Source of the DNA: a virus | Taxonomy: Duplodnaviria; Heunggongvirae; Uroviricota; Caudoviricetes | Reading direction: 5' to 3' (one strand) | IMG/VR virus record: IMGVR_UViG_2563366895_000003 | Span: 1 to 23,534 of that record | Length of the DNA: 23,534 nucleotides | Shown: positions 1 to 22,481 of the stretch, in pieces | Layout: each line of letters opens with the position of its first letter | Numbering within the stretch: position 1 is the first letter of the stretch | The notes under the pieces: model-generated | Database searches by the model: none | What the model was told of the DNA's origin: nothing | What the model saw: only the letters and a program-made list of their open reading frames with translations | Translations under genes and position numbers: made by a program

Positions 1-1236
1 CTACGATAACCGCGCATTCAACATGGCTACCTGTTCGTCGTTCATGTCATCAATCCACATACCGTAAATTTCATACACCATCTGCGCAGTTTCATGCCCC
101 ATCTGGCTGGCTATAAACGCCGGGTTCGCTCCTGCCGTCAACAGCCAGCAGGCAAAAGTATGCCGCGTATGGTACGGATTACGGCGGCGAATACCAGCAC
201 GTTTTACTGCTGCATTCCATCTCGCACCCAAACTGCTTACCGAGTAATAAGGTTTCTGTTTTCCGTTACACACTCTGGGCATGAAAACAAAATGCAGTTT
301 TTGCTTTTCGGTTCTGCCGTACTCCCGATGATAAAAAGTGATTTCGCTTTTGCGATGATGCCCGGTCAGTTTGTATTGCTCCTTCAGTGCTTCAAGAGCA
401 GGCTGCAGTAGTGTTACCGTCCGGATCCCCGCATTTGTTTTTGGGGGACCGAACATATCAAGTATCGTCAGGTTTCTTCTGACATTCACAACTCCCTTCT
501 CGAAATCCACATCCTCCCACGCCAGAGCAGCCAGTTCCCCGTGACGAAGCCCGGAGTATACGGCAAATTTCCACAAGTTCTGGCTCTGTCCTTTTTCACT
601 TTCCATTAATGCATTGAATTCTGTTTTAGATAACGGGTCAGGCTTTATTCTGTTTCTCTGTAATTTTTTTACTCCTTCAAATGGTTTGGTTGATATAAAT
701 CCCGACTGATACGCAAAACGTAACAACGAACAGAGCAGGGCGATATAATTATCAACTGTGCGCACGGTTCTTCCTTTTTTGTTGGATCTTGGATTATCTA
801 GGTAAAGCGTTTCTCCATGCAGCAGTTCATTCCGGTAGTTTAAGATATCGCTATAACGAATATGCGATATCGGGGTACTCTCACAAATTATTATCCTGAG
901 TGTTTTTAATTGTGATTTCGTTTTCTTCATTGTGTTTGTTGTTAACTCTGTTTCTTTAATTTTTGTCCAGATATCACAAAGCTCCCCGAACGTTTTTATG
1001 ACCCTCGTTGTCACCATTTTTGCCCCAGTGCTGGACTGGGGAAAACGTCTTAAATACTCAAACTCACCGGAATTGATTTCATGAACTATCAACGCTCTTA
1101 AATTCCCGGCTTTTTTAATGTTACTGTTAGTAACCTCCCAGCCTTTCAATGTTTCCCGACATCGTTTTCCTCGAAACATGAACCAGATGCGAATGTATTT
1201 ACCTCGAATCTCGACACCTGTTGGTAATTTAGACAT
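1..1236 (-). CDS. intR: Phage tyrosine integrase (Rac IntR-like), 411 aa, complete
   Basis: Full-length ORF (TAG at 1-3, ATG at 1234-1236). Translation begins MSKLPTGVEIRGKYIRIWF and carries the tyrosine-recombinase C-terminal signature (HTRHTFACWL ... Y). Matches my recollection of Rac IntR. Confidence 0.9.
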   Translation of the reverse strand: MSKLPTGVEIRGKYIRIWFMFRGKRCRETLKGWEVTNSNIKKAGNLRALIVHEINSGEFEYLRRFPQSSTGAKMVTTRVIKTFGELCDIWTKIKETELTTNTMKKTKSQLKTLRIIICESTPISHIRYSDILNYRNELLHGETLYLDNPRSNKKGRTVRTVDNYIALLCSLLRFAYQSGFISTKPFEGVKKLQRNRIKPDPLSKTEFNALMESEKGQSQNLWKFAVYSGLRHGELAALAWEDVDFEKGVVNVRRNLTILDMFGPPKTNAGIRTVTLLQPALEALKEQYKLTGHHRKSEITFYHREYGRTEKQKLHFVFMPRVCNGKQKPYYSVSSLGARWNAAVKRAGIRRRNPYHTRHTFACWLLTAGANPAFIASQMGHETAQMVYEIYGMWIDDMNDEQVAMLNARLS

Positions 1237-1237
1237 A

Positions 1238-1453
1238 TCATGAGTCTTTGATAAACTGATTTATCTTTGGATAGTTGTACCAGATAATTCCTCGCTTACT
1301 GTCTGGCTTCCCTAAAGGAGATACTCGTTTGAAGTGGAAGCCTTCCACCCAACAGTTCTGGCGGTATGCTTCAATTTGTCTGGCCCCCAGACCAGTGCGA
1401 AGCATCAGGCCGTATTCAACCATCCACTCTTCATTAAAGATTACTTGTGCCAT
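1238..1453 (-). CDS. xisR: Excisionase-like small protein (Rac XisR/YdaQ-like), 71 aa
   Basis: Small ORF immediately upstream of int on the same strand. Start chosen at [10 protein letters not shown] (GAGGTG Shine-Dalgarno 6 nt upstream) rather than the longer ORF start at 1477. Confidence 0.7.
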
Positions 1454-1552
1454 CGCATCACCTCTGGCAGGCGCCAATGTTAGACTTAGATTGACGCCCG
1501 ATGTTGATTATTAATAATCAGCTATGAAGTTTTAATTTGAATACAATGCAAT

Positions 1553-1741
1553 TCACGAGGACTGAAGTTTCTCGCAATTAAAATTTATCAGTTTTACTTT
1601 CTGCTCTCTGGAAACGCCTGCTTCTTTTTTACCTGAGAGCATTTTTTCGCATTCTGATTTAGTTAGTTTATATTTTGAATATCTTGTCCAGTTAGTAGGA
1701 GTGCCACCTTCCTTTTCAATAGTAGCGGTAATTTTATACAT
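1553..1741 (-). CDS. ydaC: Small Rac prophage protein YdaC-like, 62 aa
   Basis: ORF in the int-xis-ydaC-lar order. Start chosen at MYKITATIEKEGG with a GGAGGTG Shine-Dalgarno; it overlaps the lar stop by a few nt. Confidence 0.6.
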   Translation of the reverse strand: MYKITATIEKEGGTPTNWTRYSKYKLTKSECEKMLSGKKEAGVSREQKVKLINFNCEKLQSS

Positions 1742-1940
1742 GAACACCTCCATTATTATTTCCAGTGGTTCGTTTATTCCATCTTTCGAGTGCTTCTTTT
1801 TCACTTCCACCATAACCGGTTCGGGATTCGCATCCGTTACACTTCGCTCGGTAATATCCTGAAATGGCTTTCACCGTTACTGATGGACAACCACAAAATG
1901 GACATGGTTTAACATTGTCATATCTCATAATTTTTCTCAT
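1734..1940 (-). CDS. ralR: Restriction alleviation protein Lar/RalR-like, 68 aa
   Basis: Translation MRKIMRYDNVKPCPFCGCPSVTVKAISGYYRAKCNGCESRTGYGG; four-Cys zinc-ribbon-like motif (CPFC ... CNGC). The longer ORF start at 1967 (MHRQLEIFF) is also possible. Confidence 0.75.
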   Translation of the reverse strand: MRKIMRYDNVKPCPFCGCPSVTVKAISGYYRAKCNGCESRTGYGGSEKEALERWNKRTTGNNNGGVHV

Positions 1941-1984
1941 AAAAAATATTTCAAGTTGGCGGTGCATTACACCGCCAGGCTGAA

Positions 1985-2794
1985 TTATTCCTCTGAATTA
2001 TCGATTACACTGTATTCCCCGGTTAATACAGAGGAATCTGCAGGATCGATTGTCAGTGGTTCCTTTTCATCCATTGATACTGCACGCTGGATCTCAATTG
2101 ATACGGGCAGATATTTGAACAGGCGACGAATAGCCGTTTTTTTTGCCATTTCTTCCCAGTGAGTTACCCACGGCCCGTTATTACCAGCTTTACTCTGGCT
2201 GCGCACCAGCTCAATCTGTTTGCGCGTCATAACTTCAAACTGAGTACCTCCGTCTTTCAGTCTTGCGACAGCATAGACGTGGGTAACCGGGGCATCTTCG
2301 TTTTCTCCTGGGCGGTGTATTAACTTTTCATCAAGGCCAAATTCGAAATTAAACTCGTCACCTTCACGGACAACACGGGCTGACAGGCTGGCGATTTGAC
2401 CTGAACGGCGAGCCAGATCAATCATGCCGCGATAGCCAATGATTAGCTGAACGTTTTTTTTACCGCTCTTTTCGTTTTTATTACCAAAAGGCAGTAAATA
2501 TGCATGACCGAGGGCGCTACCGGGCTCAAGTCCGAGCTGTGAACACTGTACGATTGCACTGACAAAACTCATAGTGTCACAGTTTCCTAACGCCGGAACT
2601 TTACGAATTTCTGTGGTGGCGATACGGATCATACGTTCAGCCGTCATATGCCGTGGAAGAGCTGCTGCCAGTTGCTCTTTCATTGATGGCTGGTTAATAA
2701 AACTAATCACGTCGTTATTTTTAATTGCTGCTGGTGCACGGTTTCCCTGAGTTTTTTGCAGATCGGCTTTTGCGATTGGGGGTTGCTTAGTCAT
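1985..2794 (-). CDS. recT: Recombinase RecT (single-strand annealing protein), 269 aa
   Basis: Translation from [28 protein letters not shown] matches RecT as I recall it. Its ATG overlaps the recE stop (ATGACTAA), the arrangement I recall for recE-recT. Confidence 0.92.
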
Positions 2795-5387
2795 TTGCAT
2801 ATTCCTTAGCCCAGCGGGGCAGTGATAACGTCTTAATAGCTGGCCATTCATCGGTATTGAGGCAGTCAGCCAGGGTTCGCAGATTGCGGTGATATTCCAG
2901 CTGACCTGCCAGTTTTGCTTCTTCGCCCATCATGAAAATTTCAACCGGATAACGTCCGCATTCAATAGTTGTGCTGGCAACCAGAAAAACGAAAGTTGGC
3001 TGCACTCCAAACTGTGCTTCATAACCGTCACTGTAGAATGCATCCTGAACGTGATAGCGGTAGTCGTAATAAGCGGTTTTGAATCGTTGAATATCCGCCG
3101 TAGTTTTCACGTCCATGATCCAGTGAAATTCAGGGATAATTTTGTCCGGACGGCACCGACACAAAATTCCTGTTTCAGGATCTTCCCAGTAAATTGATGA
3201 TTCAGCGTGTCCGGCGCTTTCAACAAGCCATTGCCCCAGCGGCAAAGCCATAACGCTTTGATACATGAGTTCAATTTTCCGGCCTTCTTCCGCAGTGATA
3301 ACCGTTTTTCCTGTGCTTGCGCATTCCATCAGAAACGCTTTCTCCTCTTCTTTTCCGGCGTTTGTACGGCGGTTAAATTCAGGTGCTACGATAAAGCGGT
3401 TACTGAATTCTTCCGGTTCAAGTACCCGGCAGTGGAAAGCGGTTCCTAAATCGAGCGTTTTTGTCTTTGTGGTGTCCACGGGGGCATTTTTACGCCACAA
3501 ATACAATGCCGGAGTATCAGCAATGTCATCGAGCTGAGACTTACTGACACCGGGACCCGCGTGGTAATTCTCATTCGAAATTCCGTAATAAATACCTGGC
3601 TCTATGTCTTCTACGATTACGGGATCTGCGACTTTGCCAGTTTCATCACTGCAATCGCGATGCGGATCGCTGCCAGCATTCTCATTGTGCGGATGTTCAG
3701 CGCCTTCCATTTCCTCCGGATCATTTTCCTTAGCTTCAACCTGACTCTCTTCATCGAATGTTTCCTGGTATGTTGCGTCGCCCATCACCGCACCACAGTC
3801 AGGGCAGTTATCCCCGCCAGTCTGGCCGCAGGCATTGCAGGCTATTTCCGGTTCCTGTTGCACTACTGGCTCAGGTTGATTCATATCCGGGCTGGTTTTT
3901 TCCGTTTCTGGCTGGTTCTGGTACACAGAATCGCGAGTCTGGATCCCCTTTACCCATTTCGGATCGTTCGGGTCGCTAATTCCGTCAACAAATTCACCAC
4001 GTGATGCAGCAAGCAATTTATTGGCATCGACAGGATTTTTTGATGGAATGTTTTTCCGGGCTTCATGGAGTTCTGCCCGCAGTTCCTGATATTTCGCATC
4101 AACAGAATTTACCTGTGACTGAGCATCCAGCGGCTGCGTGTCCTGATGATGTTCAGTTGCGTCCGGTTCCATTGTTTCAGTCTCTCCCTGTTCAACTGCC
4201 GTTGTTCCAGATGGTTGCGGTTTTTCTTCATCATCCTGTTTTCCTTCTTCTGTTACTCGCTGCGGCATCGGGGCAGAGGAGCGACCGCAGGCAATATCCA
4301 CGATTTCCGGATCAGGGTTGGCATGATCGGTTTCAGTCAGTACTTTGTTCAGATATTCAGTGACGTGCGCGGGGATGATCTCGATCCCAATTGGTGCTTC
4401 TTTTACGGAAGCAACCACGATGGCGCGGGAATAATCCAGCCCGCCAGGCATGGTGATGAATTTGTCGCGGAAAACAGAAAAGGGCGGTTTATTTTCAGCG
4501 ATAATTTCCTCAATGCGTTTAGCGTGTGCCGGATGAATGTTATAGATGTCCAGATCCATTGAACGGGCCAGTACGCCAGTGGCTACGTCGCGCGCCAGTG
4601 ACGTCAGATCGTGTACGAAACCTTTGCCGCGATCGGTGAGGTTTCCGCCGCCAGCATTAGCACCGGAAGCCGTGCGAGTGATGTGTGAAACACGATTACC
4701 CTTCATCCACTCTTTTGTCAGCAGTCCTCGATCGGTGTAGTCAGCGTTCAGGTATGCTTCGAAAAAAGCAGTTATCAGTCCCAGGTTTGAATTACCAGGA
4801 TTAGGGAAAACTTTGTCAGTGTCACGAACCAGTTTGTGGAGATCGCGAATTTCCAGCGGGTCGAGCAGGCTGGTTTTGTGGGAAACAGCCAGGGCAGTAA
4901 CAGCCGGTAGTTCTTCAGCCCGAGCAATGTGTAATGCCTGGAGTCCGTCGCGTGAAACGTGCGTTACCGGTTTTTCGCTGCCGTGTTGAGCAAGCCAACG
5001 AATGGGCAGTTCCTGGCCAGAAATTGGGAGTAGCATATTCTCCTCAATCTCAGTCATGTCTTCGCCGTTGACGTTGGTATTGCCTTGATAGTGAGCGTTG
5101 TCTGGTGCTGCTCCCGGTTTTAGTTCCCATGTCATGGAGTCTTTGCTGAGTTGATAGCGTTCACTCCAGGTAAAATCGATCTCACCTTCAGCGGGCAGGT
5201 CATTAACGACAGGAAAATTCGTGGCAACAGCTTTAAAATAGCTGCTCAGTTTTTTACCTGACTTAACGATCAGGTAGTCCAGAGTGGCACAGGTCGATTC
5301 AAAATCGTCGCTTGCCCACAGGACGACGTCAGGTTCACCGGATGATTTTTTCGCTTTCCGTAACAGGAAGAGTGGTTTTGTGCTCAT
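2787..5387 (-). CDS. recE: Exodeoxyribonuclease VIII RecE, 866 aa
   Basis: 866-aa ORF. Acidic, repeat-poor N-terminal two thirds and a C-terminal nuclease-type region; GAGG Shine-Dalgarno before the ATG; immediately upstream of recT on the same strand. Confidence 0.92.
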
Positions 5388-5459
5388 TGTTTTTTAACCT
5401 CAACTCAGATTAAAATTCGTTTTGTTCAGTGAATGATCTTGCCGGATACACACTGTTCA

Positions 5460-5490
5460 TAGCCTGCGCCATACGCAGGCTATTTCTTTC
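5460..5490. other. Perfect 9-bp stem-loop (TAGCCTGCG-CCATA-CGCAGGCTA) plus TTTCTTTC in the racC-recE intergenic region
   Basis: Read directly from the sequence. The T-rich tail is on the plus strand, so it is not a canonical terminator for the minus-strand operon; possibly an RNA processing or stability element. Confidence 0.4.
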
Positions 5491-5764
5491 AGATTTCACC
5501 TTTTAATTTCATTGCAATTAGAGTTGCCAGAAATTCGGCTTTTTTTTCTGCGGGCAGATTCTTTCCGGTATGCACCAGGCACATTTTTTTGACACCTTCG
5601 TGAAGTGTTTTAACGTTGCCTGATGGACCGTCGATATCAACCACAGTGAATGGGGTTTCTTTATTTTCTGTTTTAATCACGTAGCCAATACGCTTTCCTT
5701 CCAGATTAACTTCGTGAACAATGTCATCAGTAGTTACAACAGTGGCTTCATAACTGGTAATCAT
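5489..5764 (-). CDS. racC: RacC, 91 aa
   Basis: Start chosen at MITSYEATVV with an AAGGAG Shine-Dalgarno 6 nt upstream; the longer ORF start at 5812 has no such support. Confidence 0.8.
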   Translation of the reverse strand: MITSYEATVVTTDDIVHEVNLEGKRIGYVIKTENKETPFTVVDIDGPSGNVKTLHEGVKKMCLVHTGKNLPAEKKAEFLATLIAMKLKGEI

Positions 5765-5838
5765 GTTTTTCTCCTTAATTAAGGTTGAGCGAATCCCTGC
5801 CATTGCTGGCATAAATTCAGTTTCGCATAGTCAGTTAA

Positions 5839-6009
5839 TTAAAGTTCGTGTGCCATCTGGTCTTTTTCGGCACATATTTCACTACAATATTTTTTCATTT
5901 CCGTCGTTGGGATAACTCCACGCATGAAATGAAGTGGTCTTTTAATGCTTTTGCTTTCTTTAACTTCTTTATCGCAAAGATGGTAAGCACATTTTATTTT
6001 CTTAGTCAT
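5839..6009 (-). CDS. ydaE: YdaE-like Cys-rich small protein, 56 aa (below the ORF-track cutoff)
   Basis: Hand translation: [56 protein letters not shown]. The ATG at 6007-6009 overlaps the kilR stop (ATGA), suggesting translational coupling. Confidence 0.65.
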   Translation of the reverse strand: MTKKIKCAYHLCDKEVKESKSIKRPLHFMRGVIPTTEMKKYCSEICAEKDQMAHEL

Positions 6010-6230
6010 CACCATGACTCCGCCTTTACAGGTAAACCATCACGACCGAGGAAGACTTTAATCATGCAGTCAGTAATGCATGTTTTTGTGGTCAGGTTAC
6101 GAATATAAAGTTTTCGCTTTTTAATATTGTTTGCCGAGGCAATATATGTCCGGCCGTTATGAAGAATATAATCACCAGGAGTCACACACTGACGAGGTAT
6201 TTCATCAGTTCCGAAGTGATGAGCAATCAT
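6009..6230 (-). CDS. kilR: Cell-division inhibitor KilR, 73 aa
   Basis: Translation [46 protein letters not shown]; GGAGAT Shine-Dalgarno 4 nt upstream of the chosen ATG. Confidence 0.8.
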
Positions 6231-6321
6231 AATTATCTCCATTTTCACAAATGAACTTTGTTGATGCGGTGCCTGGTGCCTCCAGGTGACGTTAACCAGT
6301 TAACAATTAACGCCGGATACC

Positions 6322-6660
6322 GTGGCTGATGTCATGAGTGCTCTACACGCTAGCTATGACGACGGGCAATCAGGCGAAAAATTTTTGCGGGAACTGTGCC
6401 AAGTGGATCTGCTGGTTCTTGATGAAATTGGCATTCAGCGCGAGACAAAAAACGAGCAGGTGGTGCTGCACCAGATTGTTGATCGCCGGACAGCGTCGAT
6501 GCGCAGCGTGGGGATGCTGACAAACCTGAACTATGAGGCCATGAAAACATTGCTCGGCGAGAGGATTATGGATCGCATGACCATGAACGGCGGGCGATGG
6601 GTGAATTTTAACTGGGAGAGCTGGCGTCCGAATGTCGTCCAGCTAGGAATTGCGAAGTGA
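6322..6660 (+). pseudogene. 5'-truncated DnaC-like helicase-loader remnant (C-terminal ~112 aa only)
   Basis: The ORF begins inside the AAA+ domain: a Walker-B-like DLLVLDEIG sits at residues ~29-37 and no Walker A/P-loop precedes it. No plausible start or Shine-Dalgarno. Confidence 0.6.
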
Positions 6661-6682
6661 TTTTTACCGGGAGGAAATTTTA

Positions 6683-7444
6683 ATGGAAACCGTTTTTGAT
6701 GCACTGAAAGCAATGGGAAAAGCCACGTCGGTAGAACTGGCTGCGCGACTTGATATCAGTCGTGAAGAAGTGCTGAACGAGCTGTGGGAACTGAAAAAGG
6801 CTGGATTCGTTGATAAAAGCGTATACACCTGGCGTGTGGCCGATAACAACGTTCAGCAGGAACATCCAGTGCCGGAAGAACAGCCGGAAGAAATCGCCAC
6901 AGCAACAGTGACGAAAATATCGGAGTGCGATTTAACCGCGACGATTGAACAACGTGGTCCACTAACTGCGGATGAACTGGCTACGTTGTTCGGTACCACA
7001 TCACGCAAAGTGGCTTCAACGCTGGCAATGGCAATCAGCAAGGGGCGTCTGATTCGCGTAAATCAGAACGGTAAATTTCGTTACTGCATGCCGGGCGATA
7101 ATTTACCAGCAGAACCGAAAGCTGCATTGGTAACGAAAAATGATGGTAAAGCCTTTCCTCAGCCAGCCGGTGCTGCGTTACCAGTACAGGAAGCGGCAAC
7201 ACAGGAAGATATTAAAACAGAAACTGTGGCGGACATTGTGCAGTCGCTGCCATCGTTTACTGAAACGCAAGCGGATGACTTGGTTTTACCATCGCTGCAT
7301 ATAGCAAACCGCGAACTGCGTCGGGCGAAAAATCATGTCCAGAAGTGGGAGCGTGTCTGCGCCGCGCTGCGGGAGCTGAACAAGCACCGGGATATTGTTC
7401 GACAGATTGTCGATTCCTCCAGTCGTATTGTGTCGGAAAAGTGA
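6683..7444 (+). CDS. Tandem winged-helix (wHTH) protein, 253 aa, function unknown
   Basis: GGGAGG Shine-Dalgarno before the ATG at 6683. Two internally similar segments ([30 protein letters not shown] and [31 protein letters not shown]) each resemble a wHTH recognition unit. Confidence 0.65.
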
Positions 7445-7459
7445 TTGCCGGAGGCGCTT

Positions 7460-7882
7460 ATGGCAAAAGTTTTTACACAGGAAGAGCGTGAAAAAATTAA
7501 GGAGCAGGTTGTTGAGCTGGTACGCCAGAGTGGGCGCGAGACGTTAAGGCAACTGGAGGCCAAGACAGGGGCGACAAGATATCTGATGAACATTCTTGCC
7601 AGAGAGTTGGTTGCCAGTGGCGATGTATACAACTCTGGCTATGGGTTATTTACCTCTGAACAGGCTCGTAAGGACTGGAATAACGCCCGCAAAAAACTAT
7701 CCAGGGCAAAGGTGAAAAAAACGGTTGTGGTTGATCCTGACCTTATCTGGTCATTACCAGACGGAGAAATACGCCGATATGACGGGCGTCTGAATATAAT
7801 CTGTAGCGAGTGCCGTAAGAGCGAAGTTATGAAGCGTGTACTGATGTTTTATCGAGGAAGTATCCAGGAATTTATTCGGTAA
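7460..7882 (+). CDS. Hypothetical prophage protein, 140 aa
   Basis: GGAGG Shine-Dalgarno 5 nt before the ATG at 7460; follows the previous gene after a 15-nt gap; no recognisable motif. Confidence 0.6.
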   Translation: MAKVFTQEEREKIKEQVVELVRQSGRETLRQLEAKTGATRYLMNILARELVASGDVYNSGYGLFTSEQARKDWNNARKKLSRAKVKKTVVVDPDLIWSLPDGEIRRYDGRLNIICSECRKSEVMKRVLMFYRGSIQEFIR

Positions 7883-8018
7883 GCAAAATCAAAATGTAAT
7901 CGCTCAAGTTTAAGTTGGTGTATCTACGGCGCAGAGCCATCGCCTCATCTGGCACTGCGCTAAAATCAAATTTAGTTCCACTCTTTATTTCGTATCTGCT
8001 AAAACGCTACATAAAATT

Positions 8019-8291
8019 TTACTTTTTTAAAGAATAAGGGAATATGTGCACCATATTGGAGGCTAGTGGATATATTCCTATGCTACGAGTTGTCTTTTTT
8101 AGTTGATCTATGCTTGCTTCTTTATCGGGAGCCCGGCCTCCCCACACTGTAACTCCCTCAGGTATATCGATTGGGCGACTTTTGTTTTCATCTGTGATTT
8201 CAATCGTTTCCCCATTATTAAGCGTAATAATCAACGATGACACGTCCAGGTGTTGTGTATTCCCATTTTTATTTTTAATGTCTATTTTCAT
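8019..8291 (-). CDS. Hypothetical small protein, 90 aa, AT-rich
   Basis: ORF only; no convincing Shine-Dalgarno. Composition differs from neighbours. May be spurious. Confidence 0.3.
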   Translation of the reverse strand: MKIDIKNKNGNTQHLDVSSLIITLNNGETIEITDENKSRPIDIPEGVTVWGGRAPDKEASIDQLKKTTRSIGIYPLASNMVHIFPYSLKK

Positions 8292-8561
8292 GGCTATTTC
8301 ATTATATGTTATCTGTGCTGGAGTAATAAGTTTACAGTATTAAGAAGCATTTTGACGAAACAATCAACTGACTTATCAGCTAAGGTGGCATTGTAATGCG
8401 ATCTGATTGGTATCATCAGGACGCTGTTCAAAAAAGGGGGATTAGTTGATCTTGAAATCTTGCTCAAAATGTGTAGCCTCTCGTTTAACTGCCAACTTTT
8501 TGGGGCAGTACACTCTGATGCTACACAACTTGCAAGTTTCATTACCCCGACGTAAACATTT

Positions 8562-9230
8562 ATGACAGTTGCTGATTTCAAACGTCCTAAGTTGGAGCTC
8601 CCAAACGGGGCAAACAAACTACTATTACACTCTTGTTGTGCACCATGTTCCGGTGAAGTGATGGAGGCTCTTCAGGCCTCAGGAATCGACTACACCATCT
8701 TCTTCTATAATCCGAACATTCATCCTCAGAAAGAGTATTTGATTCGTAAGAATGAGAATATTCGATTTGCTGAACAACATGGTGTACCGTTTATCGATGC
8801 TGATTACGACACTGACAACTGGTTTGAGCGAGCCAAAGGAATGGAATGGGAGCCCGAACGTGGGAGGCGTTGTACTATGTGTTTTGACATGCGTTTTGAA
8901 CGGACGGCGCTGTACGCCGCTGAAAATGGTTTCAGTGTGATCAGCAGTTCACTGGGCATTTCACGCTGGAAAAATATGCAGCAGGTTAACGACAGCGGAC
9001 GGCGAGCTGTCGCACATTATCCGGGCATGGTGTACTGGGATTATAACTGGCGCAAGCAGGGAGGCTCGTCCCGCATGATTGAAATCAGCAAACGCGAACA
9101 ATTCTATCAGCAGGAATATTGTGGTTGCGTGTATTCACTTCGCGATACCAATTTACACCGCAAATCCCAGGGACGCCCTCTTATCAAAATTGGTCAACTC
9201 CACTACGGTAAAGAAGAAGGGCAGGAATGA
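8562..9230 (+). CDS. queH: DUF208/QueH-like protein (putative epoxyqueuosine reductase), 222 aa
   Basis: N-terminal [11 protein letters not shown] plus [10 protein letters not shown] and YCGCVYS motifs, which I recall as the conserved Cys signature of the QueH/DUF208 family. Single-gene unit with its own flanking non-coding DNA. Confidence 0.65.
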
Positions 9231-9770
9231 TTTTTACATTACGTCAACAGAGTGTCACAACGTTTCTATATATGGTATGCCGACCGTAATTTTCGAATCA
9301 TCATGACTAATAGGCAGGTCACCTATGCCAGCAATGACCTGCTCATCTTGAAATTAGCAGAAATCTTGTAGCTATGATGTAGCTCAAAATAGTTTTTCAT
9401 TCTTTTACCTGATGTCTGTTCCTGGCTGAAAACAGACTGTATTATTTGATTACGCACCACTGACACTTGTGTATTGAAGTAGTGAGTACAAAGCCACATA
9501 TTTATCAGTGTATGTATACGTCAAAAACAGAAGATTGTTGTGCTGGTTCTGAAGTGTGCGTTAGCAATAGTGGCTGTGGTGGCAATTTATTGCCTTGTTG
9601 TTGTTCTTATGGAGCGACTTTCTGATTGATTACATACTGGCTAAAAAAAAGCGTTTGCCTGGCTTATCTTTGTCCGGCAAGGTGCGCTCATTAATCTGAA
9701 GTAAATTTATTTCTTAAGTATTCAGATTACTTCTTATGGTCGAAGTCTCCTGGCAATGTAGAACCAAAAT

Positions 9771-9813
9771 ATTTACAAAAACGAGACCCGTCGAGGATAG
9801 CTCTGCCGGGTCT
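9771..9813 (-). terminator. Intrinsic terminator candidate for the YeaR-like gene
   Basis: 7-bp stem AGACCCG/CGGGTCT with a 16-nt loop; on the minus strand it is followed by CGTTTTTGTAAAT. Confidence 0.45.
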
Positions 9814-9842
9814 GATTGTTAAAGTATTTTTAATATGATCAT

Positions 9843-10181
9843 CTATTTTTTGGTGCTATAAACTTTTTCGCCTGAGAAGTCTGGAGCGACCCAAAAGTTA
9901 ATATTAAACTGAGCATCATCGCTTAGTTCAACACGGTGCCAGTATTGTGGTGGGCTTGTTGCAAAAGAGCCAGCATTAATAACTACTTTTATCTCTGGTT
10001 CAGTAGTATTCTCATCAGCAAAACCATAATATGTTACAGTGCCTTCCATTACGCACAACTGCCCAAAAACACCTGCTGCTGTATTATGATGTGTTAATAA
10101 CGCTGAAGGTACGTTCTCTTTTGTGAAGAACGGAGTTGAGCGTTTGATTACCCAATCTTTAGGAATTCTCTTGTGTGTCAT
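9843..10181 (-). CDS. YeaR/DUF1971-like small protein, 112 aa (tentative family call)
   Basis: ATG at 10181 with GGAGGTG 5 nt upstream. The family call rests on my recollection of YeaR-type proteins and is tentative. Confidence 0.55.
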   Translation of the reverse strand: MTHKRIPKDWVIKRSTPFFTKENVPSALLTHHNTAAGVFGQLCVMEGTVTYYGFADENTTEPEIKVVINAGSFATSPPQYWHRVELSDDAQFNINFWVAPDFSGEKVYSTKK

Positions 10182-11052
10182 AACCACCTCCTATAAAACA
10201 TGTATTATAAATGCACCTTTTGAGGGGTTATGTCAAGCTCTTATGAAACACATAATTGATATGTTGATTAGAGGAGAAGATAGAATAAATATGGTTGTTT
10301 TTCGTATAACTACTTGTTTTGCTTTTGGTTTATGCATTCTATGTGTTAGGAATAAGTTATTAAAGCTTAATCAAGAAATCTCGATGTATTCCACATAGAT
10401 TACTGTTACTGAACCTTATTGTGTGCATTAGTTGTGTTCTGAAATTTCAGCTTAATTATTTATGATATATTTTTTAACGATAAATGTTTTCCCAGGTAAA
10501 AGACAGTTGGGAATAAGATAAGTAATATATCATTAATCTTGATTATTCCCAGGGTACCTTTACTGTGCATATAAATAAATCATATATGCATCAAATAATG
10601 TAAAGGCATCCTTTTAGATATGTCTTATCAAATGTTAATGACTTGAGTGGGAAACATGATTCCAGCAACTTATCATGTGGCTACTTTATAAAAATAATGC
10701 CCATATAAAACAACAAGCAAAAAGGATTACGGATAAAAAAGGAGCGAGATGTGCAAACTTGTTATTTTCCATGTTTAACCACCTTAAATAATTGATGATG
10801 ACGGGATGATTGCATCTGTAATGCTTTTATTGAAATGTTATGATAAAAAAGAACTTTTTCATAACATTAAAATGTAATTTAGCTAATCGTTTTTAATAAT
10901 AAGTGTCGTATTTCTATCCTTGTACCAGCTATTTGATATGTAGTGTTTGTTCATGCTATGTGGGGCTTTACACCATAGCCAGTTTATTTATACTTTATTC
11001 GTCAGCCTGAACAACTGGCATCTGCTGCACTGCGCCATAGAGAGATTGAGAA

Positions 11053-11652
11053 ATGGCGCATATACAACTGGTCAAACAAACTTCTTCTGGTTTACTTCTC
11101 CCGGCGACGCCGGAGAGTTGTGATTTTCTGCATCAAATTAAAATAGGCGAGTGGATACACGCTGATTTTAAGCGTGTGCGTAACTACGCATTCCACAAGC
11201 GTTTTTTCAAACTCCTGCAACTGGGATTCGATTACTGGACTCCGGTCGGTGGGGCGATCACGCCTCGCGAACGAGAACTGCTGTCTGGTTTCGTTGATTA
11301 CCTGTGCGAATCAGTTGGTCGGGAACACACGCCAGCCCTGAGTGATGCCGCAGAGCAATATCTGAATACAGTTGCGACACGCAGAACCCGGGATACGGCA
11401 TTGCTAAAGTCGTTTGAGGCTTTTCGCGAGTGGGTAACCATTCAGGCTGGATTTTACACCGAACATTTTTATCCGGACGGTAGCCATGGGCGTCGGGCGA
11501 AATCCATCGCTTTTGCGAATATGGACGAAACCGAGTTTCAGCAGGTTTATAAATCTGTTCTGAATGTGCTGTGGAACTGGATTCTGTTCCGTAAATTTTC
11601 CTCTCTGGAACAAGTCGAAAATGTGGCCGCGCAGCTGCTGGAGTTTGCGTAA
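11053..11652 (+). CDS. Lambdoid Nin-region protein (DUF1367-like), 199 aa
   Basis: ORF upstream of, and stop/start-overlapping (TAATG), the next gene; typical Nin-region position ahead of the Q candidate. Confidence 0.65.
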   Translation: MAHIQLVKQTSSGLLLPATPESCDFLHQIKIGEWIHADFKRVRNYAFHKRFFKLLQLGFDYWTPVGGAITPRERELLSGFVDYLCESVGREHTPALSDAAEQYLNTVATRRTRDTALLKSFEAFREWVTIQAGFYTEHFYPDGSHGRRAKSIAFANMDETEFQQVYKSVLNVLWNWILFRKFSSLEQVENVAAQLLEFA

Positions 11653-11942
11653 TGGTGGATTTACGTAAAGCGGCGCGGGGGCAGATGTGCACCGTCAGAA
11701 TTCCTGGCTACTGCAATCACGATCCGGAAACGTCTGTGCTGGCGCATTACCGACTGGCGGGAACGTGCGGAACAGCGACAAAACCACACGATATGCAGGC
11801 GGCGATTGCCTGTAGCTCATGCCACGATCTAATCGACGGGCGGGTAAAAACCAGCGATTACACCAAAGAAGAATTACGCCTGATGCATGCAGAAGGTGTT
11901 TTTCGCACACAAGAAATCTGGAGAAAGGAGGGATATTTGTGA
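11652..11942 (+). CDS. DUF1364/YbcO-like Cys-rich putative nuclease, 96 aa
   Basis: Cys motifs CTVRIPGYCNHD and CSSCHDLIDGR; position between a Nin protein and the Q candidate, as for ybcO in DLP12-type prophages. Confidence 0.65.
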   Translation: MVDLRKAARGQMCTVRIPGYCNHDPETSVLAHYRLAGTCGTATKPHDMQAAIACSSCHDLIDGRVKTSDYTKEELRLMHAEGVFRTQEIWRKEGYL

Positions 11943-12481
11943 TTTACCCAACGAATACAGGAAAAAGCGGAGAACACCTTCGTCTCGCCACGCTGGAAAG
12001 TGTCTGGATTCAGGGCAAACTGCGTATGTGGGGGCGCTGGTCGTATATTGGCGGTGGCAGGTCAGGAAATATGTTCAATCAGTTGTTGGCATCCCAAAAA
12101 TTGACGAAAACAGCCATCAATGAAGCCCTGCGCAGAATGAAAAAAGCGGGAATAGAGAAAGCTGAGCTGGAAGCGTTTTTGAGAGAGATGATCAACGGCA
12201 AGCAAAAGAGCTGGCTGGCGCATTGTACTGATGCAGAGGCGTTATGTATTGATCGAGTCATAAGTGAGGTGCTGGCAGAGCATCCAGGATTGATTAGCGT
12301 CCTTCGGCAACGGTATGAGGGGCGGGGAATGACCAAACGCAAAATGGCTGAATTGCTAAATGATGCACACCCAGAGTGGTGTTTTAGCACATGCGAAAAG
12401 CGAATTGCTAATTGGTTGGCCGTTGCTGAGTATGCGCTATACATTCCCATGCGAGAATCATTCGCTCAAAAAACGGCTTGA
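11939..12481 (+). CDS. Late-gene antiterminator Q candidate (positional), ~180 aa, GTG start
   Basis: GGAGGG Shine-Dalgarno 6 nt before a GTG that overlaps the preceding stop (GTGA). Last gene before a strong terminator, tRNAs and the lysis cassette. I did not recognise a Q-type zinc-finger motif, so the call is by position only. Confidence 0.45.
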   Translation: MIYPTNTGKSGEHLRLATLESVWIQGKLRMWGRWSYIGGGRSGNMFNQLLASQKLTKTAINEALRRMKKAGIEKAELEAFLREMINGKQKSWLAHCTDAEALCIDRVISEVLAEHPGLISVLRQRYEGRGMTKRKMAELLNDAHPEWCFSTCEKRIANWLAVAEYALYIPMRESFAQKTA

Positions 12482-12566
12482 TTTTTTACGCATAAACTGC
12501 TTCAATTTTGCTACGCTTCGCAAAGCTGTATCGCGTGGCGAATCAAGCGCAATTAAACTTTAATAG

Positions 12567-12597
12567 AACCCGCATCGAGCGGGTTTTGTTGTTTTTG
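12567..12597 (+). terminator. Strong rho-independent terminator (tR'-like position)
   Basis: Stem AACCCGC, loop ATCGA, stem GCGGGTT, then TTTTGTTGTTTTTG. Confidence 0.7.
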
Positions 12598-12833
12598 TGG
12601 GGTGATATAAGAAACGACATTTAATAATTGCCTTCAAAATAAATTTGTTTATATATTGTCGCGTATATTTTAAATGAAGGTGAAATGTTCACATAAAATA
12701 AAAATACATAAATAAATTTACATAACTTGACGAAAAGTGTTGTTGCGATTGGAATATTAAATCGTATTATCGAAAACGGTTCTGAGGGGGAACTCTTCTT
12801 TGATCGGTGATATCGCTCCCCTGAAGAACCAAT

Positions 12834-12909
<76 letters not shown>

Positions 12910-12912
12910 TAT

Positions 12913-12987
<75 letters not shown>

Positions 12988-13352
12988 GCATTTGAAACAA
13001 GCCTTATTGTATTGCGGCACTGGCGTATTTTTTATTACGTGGGAGCAGGTTGTTTTGGAAAAGCATTCTGTTCTCTGGCTATGATTTGAGGCCAGGTGTA
13101 GCCTCAGTGCTGATTTTTTTACGACAGCAGAATGGTGCATTATCGGTGGAGATTTTGTATTTCCTGGCAGGGTCGGTGATGCATCATTCTGGTGTTGTAA
13201 AAGCACCACAGAGGTGTTCCTCAGTGCGAGGGTAGTTTATATAGTGGTTTAGCGGGGAATCACAATATTTGTTGTAGGGACAGATATTTCGGGAGGCACC
13301 CGACACCTCGATTTTTATTACAATTAAAATGATTTATCTTATACATTGACCA

Positions 13353-13378
13353 ACCGCCATATCTGGCGGTTTTTTTTA
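13353..13378 (+). terminator. Rho-independent terminator after the tRNA pair
   Basis: Stem ACCGCCA, loop TATC, stem TGGCGGT, followed by T8. Confidence 0.6.
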
Positions 13379-13765
13379 TACCTGCATCAGACAAAAAAAG
13401 ACACGAGCATCCAGGAATACTCGTGGGACAACGTCCGTTAGATAGCAATTTGCGAGAGGGTGAAAAGTAGCGCGGTCGTCGGATTAAGACCGCGGGACAA
13501 AGTCCATGAAGAATAATAAGTATTGGCCCCCTTCTGGGGACATGTTCATACTACTAAGCTTCAGAAGTGGTTTAAATCATCAAATTAACCTTAATTTTCG
13601 ATAAGTCTTATTTCATTTCTTTGCGCCACATCTGGCGCGCATCAAATAACGCCACGCAAAGGGCATATGCGGATGCCGGTGCTTTTGACGGGGTGTTTTT
13701 TACGGGCCGCTGGTGGCCATTTTTTGTTTCCGTTACACAGCGCCCGCATCTGCGAGGTGGGGGTT

Positions 13766-13981
13766 ATGAAATCCATGGATAAGTTAACAACGGGTGTCGC
13801 CTATGGCACCTCCGCAGGCAGTGCTGGCTACTGGTTTTTACAGCTGCTCGATAAAGTCACGCCCTCACAGTGGGCAGCAATAGGTGTGCTGGGTAGCTTG
13901 GTATTTGGCCTGCTGACGTACCTGACAAACCTTTATTTCAAGATTAAAGAAGATAAGCGCAAGGCTGCGAGAGGTGAATAA
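13766..13981 (+). CDS. Class II holin (phage 21 S-like pinholin), 71 aa
   Basis: GAGGTGGGGG Shine-Dalgarno; dual-start motif MKSM; translation [50 protein letters not shown] ... KRKAARGE resembles S21 as I recall it. Stop overlaps the next start (TAATG). Confidence 0.85.
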
Positions 13982-16656: not shown

Positions 16657-16671
16657 ATAAAGCAAGGCTGT

Positions 16672-17259
16672 ATGAGCGAGAAATTAAAGATAGTCTATCG
16701 CCCATTACAAGAATTGTCACCGTATGCGCACAACGCCAGGACGCACAGTACTGAGCAGGTGGCACAACTGGTAGAAAGTATTAAGCAATTCGGCTGGACT
16801 AATCCGGTGCTGATTGACGAAAAGGGCGAAATTATTGCGGGTCACGGTCGTGTTATGGCGGCTGAAATGCTCAAAATGGATTCTGTTCCGGTCATTGTTC
16901 TGTCTGGCCTGACGGATGAGCAGAAAAAGGCGTACCGCTTGGCAGATAATCGCCTACCGATGAATGCTGGCTGGGATGAAGATCTGTTGCGGATGGAGCT
17001 GTCGGTCCTAATCAATGCTGATTTTGATGTCTCCCTGACAGGCTTCGGCCCGACAGAAATTGATGAACTGTTGACGGATGTTTTGCCCGGTACAGGAAAT
17101 AAGGAGGAGCCGTATACGACGAAAATTGATACGCCTGTTTATGAGCCGTCGGGCGGTAAACCGGATATCAGTGAACTGTACGACGATACGAAAACTCAGG
17201 AGCTGATCAGCCGGATACGTTCGGCGTCCCTTGAACCCGCCAGTAAAAGATCGCGTTAA
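16672..17259 (+). CDS. ParB-like nuclease-domain protein (YnaK-like), 195 aa
   Basis: ParB N-terminal-domain-type motifs (GHGRVMAA ... KKAYRLADN) with an acidic C-terminal tail; lies immediately upstream of the terminase remnant. Confidence 0.65.
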   Translation: MSEKLKIVYRPLQELSPYAHNARTHSTEQVAQLVESIKQFGWTNPVLIDEKGEIIAGHGRVMAAEMLKMDSVPVIVLSGLTDEQKKAYRLADNRLPMNAGWDEDLLRMELSVLINADFDVSLTGFGPTEIDELLTDVLPGTGNKEEPYTTKIDTPVYEPSGGKPDISELYDDTKTQELISRIRSASLEPASKRSR

Positions 17260-17488
17260 CTCAATGAATGCAATGTTCTGCAATGCCAATGGTGAGCGTC
17301 GCTATAAAGTTAATGTGAAGCGTTGTCCGGTATATGCCGAATCACTGGAGCAACAGGTCTGGGATGATAAGGGGGAGCCTGATAAAAAATCTGGCAATGA
17401 TCACCCGAATGATGCCGGAGGTTATTTCATCGTTAAGCAATTCCCTATTGTCAAACCGACCGGAAGAGTCACATCACTTCGGATTTAA
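17231..17488 (+). pseudogene. Terminase large-subunit C-terminal remnant (YdaY-like), ~85 codons
   Basis: Short ORF overlapping the 3' end of the ParB-like gene and ending 3 nt before the putative portal start; call is by position and a weak C-terminal resemblance (GNDHPNDAGGYF). Confidence 0.4.
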
Positions 17489-17490
17489 TT

Positions 17491-18897
17491 ATGGCTGATA
17501 TATCAACACCCAACCTCGACTATAACGATATGCTGGAAGCGTGGGATATTAACGACGCATTGATGGGCGGTACGCTTGAAATGCGCAGGCAGGGGGAAAA
17601 TTATCTCCCCAAATGGCCTAATGAAGATGAAGACGCTTATAAAAAACGCCTGTCTGTGGCTACGCTACTTCCTGTGTATGAAGAAAGCATCAAACAAAAT
17701 ATTGGGCGCATATTTGCAGAGCCGACAGTATTGAGTGAGGAAACGCCGGAAAAAATCAGGGAATATGCAGAAAATATCGACATGGAGGGGAGCCGACTGG
17801 ATGTGTGGGCGCAGCAATTTTTCAGTCTCGCATTTCAGTATGGTGTGGCACATGCGCTGGTGGACTATCCACGAACGGATATGAACGAGATTCGGACAAA
17901 AGCCGATGAAAACGCGGCCGGTGGTCGCCCGTACGTTACGATGCTGAATCCACGCCAGGTTATTGGATGGAAATCGAAAGTTGAAAAAGGGAAAGTTGTT
18001 CTCACTGATTTGCGTATAAAAGAGGTCATCATTATTGATGGTGATGATTTCGGGCAGAAGAAGGTGGAGCAGATCCGCCATATTATGCCCCGTCGAGTAG
18101 AAATTTATCGACGCAGCGAAGGTACTAATGGCGAATCTGTCTGGATGCTTCATGAGTCATGGAATACCAGCCGTGATGATATTCCTCTGGTAACACTGTA
18201 TACGAAGAAAACAGGGTTTATGCGTGGTACACCGCCATTGCTTAATCTTGGCTTGCTGAATATCAAGCACTGGCAAAGCCAGAGCGAGCAGGACAATATT
18301 CTTCATGTTGCCCGCGTTCCATTGCTGGTGGCCTACGGGCTGGACAGGAATGAAGAACTGACGGTTGGTGCATCCACCGCTACGATTTTTGAGGACAGAA
18401 CAAAAAATGGCCTCGAATATGTTGAACATAGTGGCGCAGCGATAGAATCTGGCGAAACATCACTTGAGAAGCTGGAAAATCAGATGCGTCATGCCGGCGC
18501 TAAACTTCTGCGGGCTGAAAATACATCCACCAAATCTGTTGATCAGACTAATGAAGAGCGGATGCAGGAACACTCGCCGCTTTATACAATGGCGAACTCC
18601 CTCGAAGATGCCCTCGATAATATTCTCCAGATAATGGCGGAATGGAGCGGAGAGAGTTGCGGTGGCAATGTGGATGTGCGCACTGAACTGGATGTATCTG
18701 CCCAGGTGTTTGACTCATCCTCCGCGCTGGCTGTTCAGTCATTGCGTCAGGGCGGTGATATACGTCAGATTGATGCGGTTCGGGTGTTGCAGGCGTTGAA
18801 ATTTATCGATCAGGATTCCCGTCCAGAGGAAGTGATCGATGAATTAAAAAATCAGAGTGTAATGCTGATGGAAATCAATGATGCAAACCGTGAATGA
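17491..18897 (+). CDS. Putative phage portal protein (positional call), 468 aa
   Basis: Large ORF directly after the terminase remnant and overlapping the next ORF; size and acidic C-terminus are compatible with a portal. No motif-level confirmation. Confidence 0.5.
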   Translation: MADISTPNLDYNDMLEAWDINDALMGGTLEMRRQGENYLPKWPNEDEDAYKKRLSVATLLPVYEESIKQNIGRIFAEPTVLSEETPEKIREYAENIDMEGSRLDVWAQQFFSLAFQYGVAHALVDYPRTDMNEIRTKADENAAGGRPYVTMLNPRQVIGWKSKVEKGKVVLTDLRIKEVIIIDGDDFGQKKVEQIRHIMPRRVEIYRRSEGTNGESVWMLHESWNTSRDDIPLVTLYTKKTGFMRGTPPLLNLGLLNIKHWQSQSEQDNILHVARVPLLVAYGLDRNEELTVGASTATIFEDRTKNGLEYVEHSGAAIESGETSLEKLENQMRHAGAKLLRAENTSTKSVDQTNEERMQEHSPLYTMANSLEDALDNILQIMAEWSGESCGGNVDVRTELDVSAQVFDSSSALAVQSLRQGGDIRQIDAVRVLQALKFIDQDSRPEEVIDELKNQSVMLMEINDANRE

Positions 18898-19813
18898 ACG
18901 GCTGCGTGATGAATCAATTGCTCATGCAGTCTGGATATCCCGCTATAGCACTGGTGTGGCTGCCAGAATGGTGAAGATACTGAATGACAGCGATGCGGAG
19001 CTTACAGCTCGCCTGCTGGTAGCACTGGACAGCCTCGATCCTGGTAGTTTTACCGTTACGCGCCTGGAGTCACTTCTGGCGAGTGTCAGAGAGGTTAACG
19101 GGGCTAAAGCGCAGGCGCTCACTATCAACAGGAATGAGGTTAACTCAACCGTTGATTTAACCCTTACAAAGCAATCAGGGACTGGCAATCGTTTTGTTTT
19201 ACAGAACTCAGGTAATGCAGAACTACCGTTTTCTGTCAGGGTGTGGGGTTCCAGTACTCGACAAAACGTTTTTGAGGTTGGAACGTCTGCTGCGTATCTG
19301 TTTTATGCTCAAAAAACATCTTCAGGTCAGCTGTTTGATGTAAACGGTGCTATTAACTGTACAACACTGAATCAGTTATCAGACCGCGAGCTGAAAGACA
19401 ATATTCAGATTATCAGTGACGCAACCGAAGCTATCCGTAAAATGAACGGGTACACCTACACACTTAAGGAAAACGGACTACCTTACGCTGGTGTTATTGC
19501 ACAGGAAGCAATGGAGGCAATACCGGAAGCGGTAGGCTCATTCACTCATTACGGTAAAGAGTTGCAGGGACCAACGGTTGACGGCAATGAATTACGTGAA
19601 GAAACACGTTATCTGAATGTTGACTACGCCGCCGTGACGGGGTTACTTGTTCAGGTCGCCCGTGAAACAGATGATCGCGTTACCGCGCTGGAAGAGGAAA
19701 ATACAACGTTACGTGAAAATCTGGCAACAGCAGGCACCCGGATCACCACTCTGGAAAATCAGGTAAGCGAACTGGTTGCACTTGTCCGGCAGTTAACAGG
19801 AAGCGAACATTGA
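18878..19813 (+). CDS. Chimeric ORF ending in a tail-fibre/tailspike C-terminal intramolecular chaperone (Peptidase S74-like) domain, 311 aa
   Basis: C-terminal half carries LSDRELKDNI ... NGYTYTLKENGLPYAGVIAQEAMEAIPEAV, which I recall as the self-cleaving chaperone motif of fibre proteins. The N-terminal ~90 aa look unrelated to a fibre shaft. Confidence 0.65.
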   Translation: MMQTVNERLRDESIAHAVWISRYSTGVAARMVKILNDSDAELTARLLVALDSLDPGSFTVTRLESLLASVREVNGAKAQALTINRNEVNSTVDLTLTKQSGTGNRFVLQNSGNAELPFSVRVWGSSTRQNVFEVGTSAAYLFYAQKTSSGQLFDVNGAINCTTLNQLSDRELKDNIQIISDATEAIRKMNGYTYTLKENGLPYAGVIAQEAMEAIPEAVGSFTHYGKELQGPTVDGNELREETRYLNVDYAAVTGLLVQVARETDDRVTALEEENTTLRENLATAGTRITTLENQVSELVALVRQLTGSEH

Positions 19814-19852
19814 TATCCTTCAAGCCCTGAAGGAGGCTGTTCCTGGTACGTT

Positions 19853-19996
19853 CAGACTGTTGTTGAGCTGGAGATCGCAACGGAGGAAGAAACCTTGTTG
19901 CTGGAAGCCTGGAAAAAGTATCGGGTGTTGCTGAACCGTGTTGATACATCAACTGCACCTGATATTGAGTGGCCTGCTGTCCCTGTTATGGAGTAA
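19853..19996 (+). pseudogene. Tail fibre assembly protein (Tfa) C-terminal remnant, ~47 codons
   Basis: Reads ...[43 protein letters not shown], in the same frame as and directly after the TGA of the preceding ORF. Resembles Tfa C-termini as I recall them; no start codon of its own. Confidence 0.5.
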
Positions 19997-20011
19997 TCGT
20001 TTTGAGATACG

Positions 20012-20888: not shown

Positions 20889-21017
20889 GATAGCTCCTTG
20901 CAATATAACTATTTCTATCTGTTCATTTGTACTTAAAAAGGATTGAGTAGCCTGAACAGTTCTATCCGTAAATATACCAGATAGAAGAGTTGTACAATAA
21001 CAAATCCTCCGTATAAG

Positions 21018-21056
21018 AACCAGCCATAATAGTCTGGTTCTTAAGGTTTTTTTTGT
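21018..21056 (+). other. Stem-loop GAACCAG-N10-CTGGTTC followed by a plus-strand T8 run, between the two cassette genes
   Basis: Read directly. Terminator-like for plus-strand (antisense) transcription only; on the coding strand it is preceded by an A-run, not followed by a U-run. Confidence 0.4.
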
Positions 21057-21101
21057 TCTAGGGGGGGTTAACCTACGATTCGTCCCCATATCGACGATAA
21101 A

Positions 21102-22304: not shown

Positions 22305-22430
22305 AAAGTTATCCCTATGTAGTTTTGTACACCAAAGTTCGAAATGTTTTTATATGAATATTGAGCTGATTCGTAAGATTATTCCTAGCTCATCTTCATT
22401 CCGCCATGATACAACGGTTTGCTTGCAGGT

Positions 22431-22468: not shown

Positions 22469-22481
22469 GGTGGAGTTGAAA

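Follow-up and report, generated by a model that had tools for sequence, protein, structure and literature searches.

In E. coli WL164, a cryptic prophage of the Rac family has undergone a single deletion of 3,364 bp, which begins 89 bp upstream of kilR and takes in the first 135 codons of ydaV. Our best overall explanation of the region, to which we assign a probability of about 0.78, is that it represents a deletion scar next to which kilR was orphaned without a promoter. The repressor and the promoters that it repressed would have been lost together, and the kilR operon would be kept silent by lack of transcription rather than by repression.

The stretch of DNA analysed here (the window) is 23,534 nucleotides long. 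A 2.1-kb query taken from it (window 5400-7500) matched the chromosome of E. coli WL164 (NZ_CP128642.1) over its full length with 100% identity. By its position and gene content the window is a Rac-family cryptic prophage of WL164, adjoining ttcA. In the PGAP annotation of the WL164 record ttcA, intR and xisR are found directly to the left of, or in, the window, as is characteristic of the Rac integration site. The early-left operon typical of Rac (recE/recT, racC, ydaE and kilR) and the trkG cargo gene were recognized from Pfam, PGAP and identity to K-12. The left-end gene order is intR, xisR, a DUF1187 gene, ralR, recT, recE, a racC-like gene, ydaE and kilR (PGAP). The integrase has Arm-DNA-bind_2 and Phage_integrase domains (Pfam). 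Five genes of the left operon are intact on the minus strand: recT (1985-2794), recE (2787-5387), the racC-like gene (5489-5764), ydaE (5839-6009), all four identified by Pfam and PGAP, and kilR (6009-6230), which encodes a protein of 73 amino acids (WP_000560211.1, PGAP). To the right of kilR, PGAP annotates an ATP-binding pseudogene followed by genes for DUF1627, DUF977, QueH, DUF1971, DUF1367, DUF1364 and DUF1133, then tRNA-Thr, tRNA-Gly, essD, rrrD, a lysis gene and trkG, and finally more truncated phage genes. Pfam scans agreed with PGAP for Exonuc_VIII/DUF3799, RecT, the integrase, DUF1627, DUF977 and QueH.

The gene order of K-12 Rac is intR-xisR-ralR-recT-recE-racC-ydaE-kilR-sieB-ydaF-ydaG-racR-ydaS-ydaT-ydaU-ydaV-...-trkG. 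The WL164 prophage occupies the same site by ttcA, its intR-to-kilR arm (window 1-6309) is collinear with K-12 Rac at 97.6% identity, and the 3′ half of ydaV and trkG are 93% and 99% identical, respectively. Unlike K-12 Rac, it lacks everything from sieB through the first 135 codons of ydaV, and it has more late-region genes: QueH, DUF1367, DUF1364, DUF1133, two tRNAs and a lysis cassette. No immunity module (repressor, divergent cro-like gene, ydaT) was found in the window in the PGAP annotation of the identical record. Because this module is absent in comparison with the prophage of E. coli SCU-109, the WL164 prophage is, judged by its gene content, a deletion derivative of the Rac family and not an intact member.

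The preliminary description of the region had placed a deletion junction within 6231-6321, and had proposed that the deletion took the repressor and replication-initiator module and left kilR beside a truncated DnaC-like gene. The alignment to an intact relative that it had suggested displays the breakpoint directly and bears out both statements. The intact sister prophage of SCU-109 (NZ_CP051733.1, locus L003) is near-identical to the window on both flanks; the protein accessions of recE, kilR, DUF1627 and QueH are the same in the two prophages, and SCU-109 has seven extra genes between kilR and DUF1627. In blastn alignments the left arm (window 1679-6319) corresponds to L003 1-4641 with 99.96% identity, and the right arm (window 6315-13968) to L003 8001-15653 with 99.56% identity. 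In most genomes the sole match to the 2.1-kb query was its right 56%, from window 6315-6318 onwards. The left arm, which consists of DNA upstream of kilR, ends at 6319, the right arm, which comes from the interior of ydaV, starts at 6320 (junction feature 6318-6320, no strand), and relative to SCU-109 the window lacks 3,364 bp at 6319|6320. Base-by-base comparison revealed that the dinucleotide TA at 6318-6319 is common to both parents (GGaTA/GGtTA): the left parent reads ...GCCGGATA|ATCCACC, the right parent ...TGTGGTTA|CCGTGGC, and the window ...GCCGGATA|CCGTGGC. Because of this exact 2-bp microhomology, the junction bears the sequence signature of a single illegitimate recombination rather than of a site-specific or homologous exchange.

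The exact junction occurs in only one of 5,426 complete E. coli genomes, that of WL164. The junction 40-mer had no match in the GTDB species-representative genomes or in the JGI metagenome contigs, and the junction was absent from all 88 other kilR loci collected from IMG/VR and GTDB. These counts bear on the alternative, raised already in the preliminary description, that the gene order is the native mosaic architecture of another phage lineage and that nothing was deleted. Lambdoid phages are mosaic, and 11 IMG/VR loci have kilR behind a wholly different leader up to the Shine-Dalgarno sequence. However, in WL164 the break in ydaV falls in the middle of a domain, the AAA+ fold, both flanks are >99.5% identical to one intact prophage, and the arrangement is confined to a single one of the genomes compared. 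A native origin of the gene order did not withstand this comparison and we consider it extremely improbable.

In 3 of the 5,426 genomes kilR and the 3′ end of ydaV were close enough to each other to be joined by the search. The other two, DP051 (NZ_CP156034.1) and the near-duplicate record NZ_OZ546963.1, carry an independent deletion of ~3.18 kb, with one endpoint a short way upstream of ydaG, the other near codon 212 of ydaV, and a TGG microhomology. As in WL164, the repressor, cro, ydaT, ydaU and most of ydaV are gone, and kilR and a stub of ydaV are left. Unlike in WL164, the endpoints lie elsewhere, the region of the KilS small RNA as well as sieB, ydaF and ydaG are kept, and only ~36 codons of ydaV remain. 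Events of this kind, at small homologies, have thus eliminated the immunity and replication module on two or more occasions. That the WL164 junction is present in one assembly only could be taken as a sign of an assembly artefact, but the breakpoints contain no repeat and share only 2 bp, leaving nothing for an assembler to collapse, and the WL164 record is a closed chromosome. The independent loss of the same module in DP051, with other endpoints, demonstrates that such deletions occur. An artefact therefore appears very unlikely. The DP051 prophage also has a second deletion of ~3.3 kb, which fuses xisR to the middle of recE; the positions of its two deletions are L002 5215-5216 and 8074-8085.

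On the right side of the junction lies a 5′-truncated ydaV (6319-6660, plus strand; alignment, Pfam, PGAP), encoding a homolog of DnaC/IstB-like AAA+ helicase loaders. The open reading frame starts with a GTG at 6322 and stops at 6660; it begins 89-91 bp beyond the start codon of the retained kilR gene, in agreement with the ~90 bp noted in the preliminary description. In-frame homology to YdaV extends from 6319; 113 of 113 residues agree with positions 136-248 of the SCU-109 protein, which has 248 amino acids, and the match to the Pfam profile IstB_IS21 (PF01695) is limited to profile positions 129-216 of 238. The frame thus begins inside the AAA+ domain, as had been read from the sequence. 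The Walker B motif DLLVLDEIG, which conforms to the pattern hhhhDE, is present at residues 30-38 of the fragment, whereas the Walker A motif (P-loop, pattern GxxGxGK[ST/N]) GKPGTGKN, residues 107-114 of full-length YdaV, is missing. Only 113 of the 248 codons are left and the native start is gone, as is the partner gene ydaU. The sequence before the stub contains no Shine-Dalgarno sequence, a consensus scan found no plus-strand promoter-like site for it, and PGAP flags 6319-6660 as a pseudogene ('incomplete; missing N-terminus'). Because Walker A, start context and partner are all lacking, the stub does not qualify on its sequence as a functional DnaC/IstB-like loader and is to be regarded as a dead pseudogene. 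The possibility that correction of a sequencing error might recover a full-length gene could be dismissed, since the DNA upstream of 6319 is the native kilR leader and not ydaV. The DUF1627 gene (6683-7444) and the DUF977 gene (7460-7882), both on the plus strand and identified by Pfam and PGAP, are retained 3′ of ydaV, cut off from PR.

The content of the lost block can be read from SCU-109 (L003 4642-8005). Starting from the kilR side it comprises the distal part of the kilR leader including a KilS homolog and a terminator-like hairpin (~L003 4718-4814), ydaF (DUF1391), a ydaG-like gene of 44 codons, the gene of a 139-aa HTH_3 repressor (L003 5551-5970), the gene of an 84-aa cro-like HTH protein, ydaT, ydaU (DUF1376), and ydaV codons 1-135 including Walker A. 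Pfam assigned the deleted genes to DUF1391, HTH_3, HTH_17, YdaT_toxin, DUF1376 and IstB_IS21. Two minus-strand promoter-like sites were also lost: TTTACA-17-CATTAT at L003 5460-5432, situated between the repressor gene and the ydaG-like gene in a cluster of AGTACAT-type motifs, and a second site at L003 6006-5978. The deletion removed the whole immunity and replication module: a PL/OL-like region, the repressor, the presumed PRM/PR, the cro-like gene, ydaT (cII analog) and ydaU (O analog), and in the same event the Walker A half of ydaV (P/DnaC analog). The preliminary description had expected the lost region to be of the lambdoid N/repressor/cro/O type; repressor, cro-like gene and O analog were indeed in the block, but not N, a gene that Rac lacks.

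Between L003 5427 and 6294 the DNA is not homologous to racR/ydaS of K-12, whereas the flanks of this segment are homologous. Such a pattern is expected of a lambdoid immunity cassette with its own OL/PL and OR/PR. Judged from SCU-109, the ancestor of the WL164 prophage differed from K-12 Rac in immunity type: it had the 139-aa HTH_3 repressor and the 84-aa cro-like protein, whose genes share no DNA homology with racR/ydaS, and it had no sieB. The only two exact AGTACATT motifs of the locus overlap the two promoter-like sites, both in the deleted block. The AGTACATT operator motif was not enriched over the whole locus (18 found, 14 expected), and is suggestive only by its clustering in the immunity block. 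By position, by the sharing and clustering of motifs, and by analogy with lambda and K-12 Rac, we infer that the site at L003 5460-5432 is a candidate PL.

KilR is an inhibitor of FtsZ and MreB (PMC12482147). In K-12, titration or silencing of RacR derepresses ydaG, ydaF, kilR, ydaE, racC, recE and recT, and ralR, xisR, intR and ydaS/ydaT are derepressed together with this left operon (PMC11014345; bioRxiv 10.64898/2026.09.06.749655), which indicates that transcription of the left operon originates in the region under repressor control. The K-12 small RNA KilS corresponds to the 5′UTR of kilR and is transcribed from a separate start site, 273 nt ahead of the kilR ATG (PMC8175672). The KilS unit ends in a GC-rich hairpin and a T-run; alignment showed it to be conserved in SCU-109 and to lie wholly inside the deleted block. 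In WL164 only 89 bp of native DNA are left upstream of the kilR start, followed by the antisense strands of ydaV, DUF1627 and DUF977. A consensus scan detected no sigma-70-like site on either strand between 5800 and 7000, and between 6231 and 8700 it detected a single weak match (9/12), which lies 2 kb away within an ORF of the minus strand; the scans register consensus matches only, and a non-consensus or stress-sigma promoter is possible in the 89-bp leader or in antisense ydaV/DUF1627.

The preliminary description had asked how kilR is kept silent in a prophage without a repressor. The premise was right for the window, but the paradox is mostly illusory: with the repressor-controlled leftward promoter region and the KilS unit deleted, no repression would be needed. 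The deletion would leave kilR, ydaE, racC, recE and recT without native promoters, and likewise ralR, xisR and intR further downstream. Thus we infer from the sequence that promoter loss has silenced kilR, recET and int/xis in WL164. In K-12 kilR is silenced by Rho and NusG (PMC5793797; PMC12482147). Any antisense transcripts straying in from the ydaV/DUF1627 side would not be translated, which would make them a target of Rho/NusG. The outcome would be a locked-in prophage remnant, capable of neither induction nor replication.

The absence of a cognate repressor from the window, claimed in the preliminary description, was confirmed, and the check for a copy elsewhere in the genome that it had proposed gave none in the WL164 chromosome either. 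The 2.1-kb junction region and the reverse-complemented repressor/cro cassette of SCU-109 were combined into one query and compared with the WL164 chromosome by blastn in 'distant' mode; the chimeric design puts WL164 at the top of the ranking and prevents its two parts from merging into one place. No further copy of the cognate immunity cassette was found in the WL164 chromosome at ~65-70% identity or better: the query hit one place, the junction itself, whereas it hit three in SCU-109, the positive control. Several lambdoid prophages are often present in one E. coli genome, and the 2.1-kb query matched three places in the median genome, so that a cognate repressor acting in trans to keep kilR and recET off might be considered. 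Against it stand the single place matched in WL164 and the deletion of the candidate operators OL/OR, which leaves such a repressor nothing to bind. We assess control in trans as highly improbable.

The main rival to promoter loss is that kilR is still transcribable, for example from a weak cryptic promoter or by antisense transcription running on from the gene at 8019-8291 (minus strand), and that it is held back by Rho/NusG only, with a stress checkpoint of the OxyS-NusG-KilR type preserved in the absence of any repressor. Such a reading would be consistent with K-12, where kilR expression is described as read-through that is released when NusG falls (PMC5793797). Also in its favour, kilR has been preserved together with its Shine-Dalgarno sequence and the two leader hairpins, and there is a minus-strand ORF 1.8 kb upstream. 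However, no minus-strand promoter-like site was detected between 6231 and 8200, a terminator-like hairpin is located on the minus strand at 6914-6894, and the deletion took PL and the native promoter of KilS, from which transcripts in K-12 are known or likely to arise. On balance we find persistent transcription of this kind unlikely, and prefer silence through promoter loss.

The retained part of the kilR leader (6231-6319, minus strand, 89 nt; K-12/SCU-109 alignment and folding) contains the Shine-Dalgarno sequence GGAG and two hairpins, recognized by folding. Hairpin 1 (6288-6314, minus strand), also supported by the leader alignment, is GGCGUUAAuu-guuaacu-ggUUAACGUC; hairpin 2 (6272-6286, minus strand), CCUGG-aggca-CCAGG, is followed by the Shine-Dalgarno sequence. 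The junction lies 4-5 nt from the base of hairpin 1 and leaves it intact. The preliminary description had associated a triple TTAAC repeat with the junction zone. The repeat is there (TTAAC-N3-TTAAC-N2-TTAAC at 6292-6311, one match against none expected in shuffles), but it forms the stem of the native leader hairpin and, as it is also present in intact prophages, it is not a product of the junction. K-12-type prophages have GACUGUAA...UUGCAGUC at the position of hairpin 1. Over 13 distinct leader sequences 99% of the cells were paired, compared with 17-47% in slid-register controls. Two base pairs of hairpin 1 are changed on both sides (U-A to G-C, G-C to U-A) between the K-12-type and WL164-type Rac haplotypes, and two more are changed on one side and still paired. 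Because all variation resides in one haplotype switch, this covariation amounts to effectively one evolutionary event. The fold energy of the leader was not significant (z = -0.77), and Rfam identified no known RNA family in 6231-6682. From its sequence, hairpin 1 is a possible leader element. It is quite doubtful whether one can go further, and regard the 89-nt leader as a functional cis-regulatory RNA, kilR as driven only by Rho-sensitive antisense read-through, and the deletion as a step of domestication instead of mere decay. Were it so, WL164 would keep a repressor-free, stress-inducible KilR division checkpoint.

Two interpretations of the sequence around the leader were rejected. One was a mosaic boundary at 6309, where blastn alignments to K-12 and DP051 ended inside the TTAAC motif; SCU-109 is collinear with K-12 across 6309, hence the boundary is explained by end-trimming beside a short hypervariable stretch. 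The other was a recombination hot spot at the junction, suggested by several kilR loci that diverge directly upstream of TCCGGCG, the very position of the WL164 junction. All of these loci regain the conserved KilS/terminator sequence after a variable segment of 20-60 nt, and antisense ydaV is found in the window only.

The variable segment itself occurs in at least five unrelated versions (L003, L032, L038, L045 and others). It is located ~90-150 nt ahead of the kilR ATG and has conserved sequence on either side, the KilS/terminator region on one and hairpin 1 on the other. In eleven IMG/VR contigs, including L060, L062, L066, L071, L073, L076, L080, L086, L090 and L093, kilR (~96% amino acid identity) stands behind wholly different upstream sequence joined at the Shine-Dalgarno sequence (TTAAGGAGATAATTATG), which constitutes a mosaic boundary at the ribosome-binding site. 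SCU-109 has a plus-strand promoter-like site, TTAACC-18-GATAAT (9/12; L003 4614-4643, window 6292-6321), overlapping the TTAAC motif. The junction turns its -10 hexamer into GATACC. This site may be a chance occurrence, as there is no plus-strand gene close downstream in SCU-109.

The WL164 allele has an engineered parallel. In K-12, racR alone could not be deleted, whereas a deletion from sieB to ydaU, which removed racR, ydaS, ydaT and their shared intergenic region and kept kilR intact, gave viable cells (Krishnamurthi et al. 2017, PMC5700373). In the same study, among 154 genomes ydaS never occurred without racR, and kilR was present in 48% compared with 34% for ydaS/racR (PMC5700373). By analogy, the engineered deletion is the laboratory counterpart of the natural allele. 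The latter differs in that it starts 89 bp upstream of kilR, reaches into ydaV, and was formed at a 2-bp microhomology and not by recombineering. WL164 agrees with the published rule that racR is lost only together with ydaS/ydaT and their promoter region.

The sbcA mutations of Rac are lesions upstream of recET that cause constitutive recE/recT expression by derepression or promoter fusion. The WL164 deletion resembles them in affecting the regulatory region upstream of the recET operon. It differs in that the candidate promoters were deleted with the repressor and no promoter-like sequence was fused in: neither the candidate PL nor the promoter region of KilS nor the operators have been retained, and the sequence scan revealed no consensus promoter joined to the recET operon. 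For this reason the predicted recET phenotype is silence, not activation.

The event is ordinary prophage decay, and loss of the immunity/replication block from a cryptic lambdoid prophage is already well known. WL164 offers a clean, base-resolved natural example of prophage lock-in, in which one microhomology deletion took the repressor and the replication genes and, with them, probably the two promoters of the switch. A toxin gene without its repressor ceases to be paradoxical once its promoter has been lost as well. The annotation of 6319-6660 as a pseudogene should be kept, and recET, kilR, int and xis of WL164 should not be assumed to be inducible. Beyond annotation the case carries little weight.

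Several other features of the prophage were noted. The RalA/ralR type I toxin-antitoxin pair is intact, at window 1557-1735 (plus strand) and 1734-1928 (minus strand; L001 4335-4529), with the RalA antitoxin sRNA (Rfam RF02694, 212 bits) opposite the ralR toxin gene. YdaE (window 5839-6015, minus strand) gave a sub-threshold match to the Rtr1/RPAP2 zinc-finger profile of Pfam (32.1 bits, cutoff 33 bits). A QueH epoxyqueuosine reductase gene is located at 8562-9230 (plus strand; Pfam E = 1e-65), where K-12 Rac has none. Genes for tRNA-Thr(TGT) and tRNA-Gly(TCC), 3 nt apart, are found at 12834-12987 (plus strand); they belong to the late region and precede the lysis cassette.

Decay continues to the right of trkG (window ~16670-20000), where ynaK is truncated and a remnant of the terminase is present. 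After the terminase remnant an intact portal-like DUF4055 gene (17491-18897) abuts a gene with a tail-fibre domain and a stub of a tail-fibre-assembly gene. Hardly any of the morphogenesis genes are thus left. The right boundary of the prophage differs from that of K-12 Rac, whose right end (pinR, ynaE, ttcC, uspF) is not present. Instead, the tail-fibre remnant is followed on the minus strand (window ~20100-23534) by DUF2971 and DUF4236 genes and then by sitD of the sitABCD cluster.
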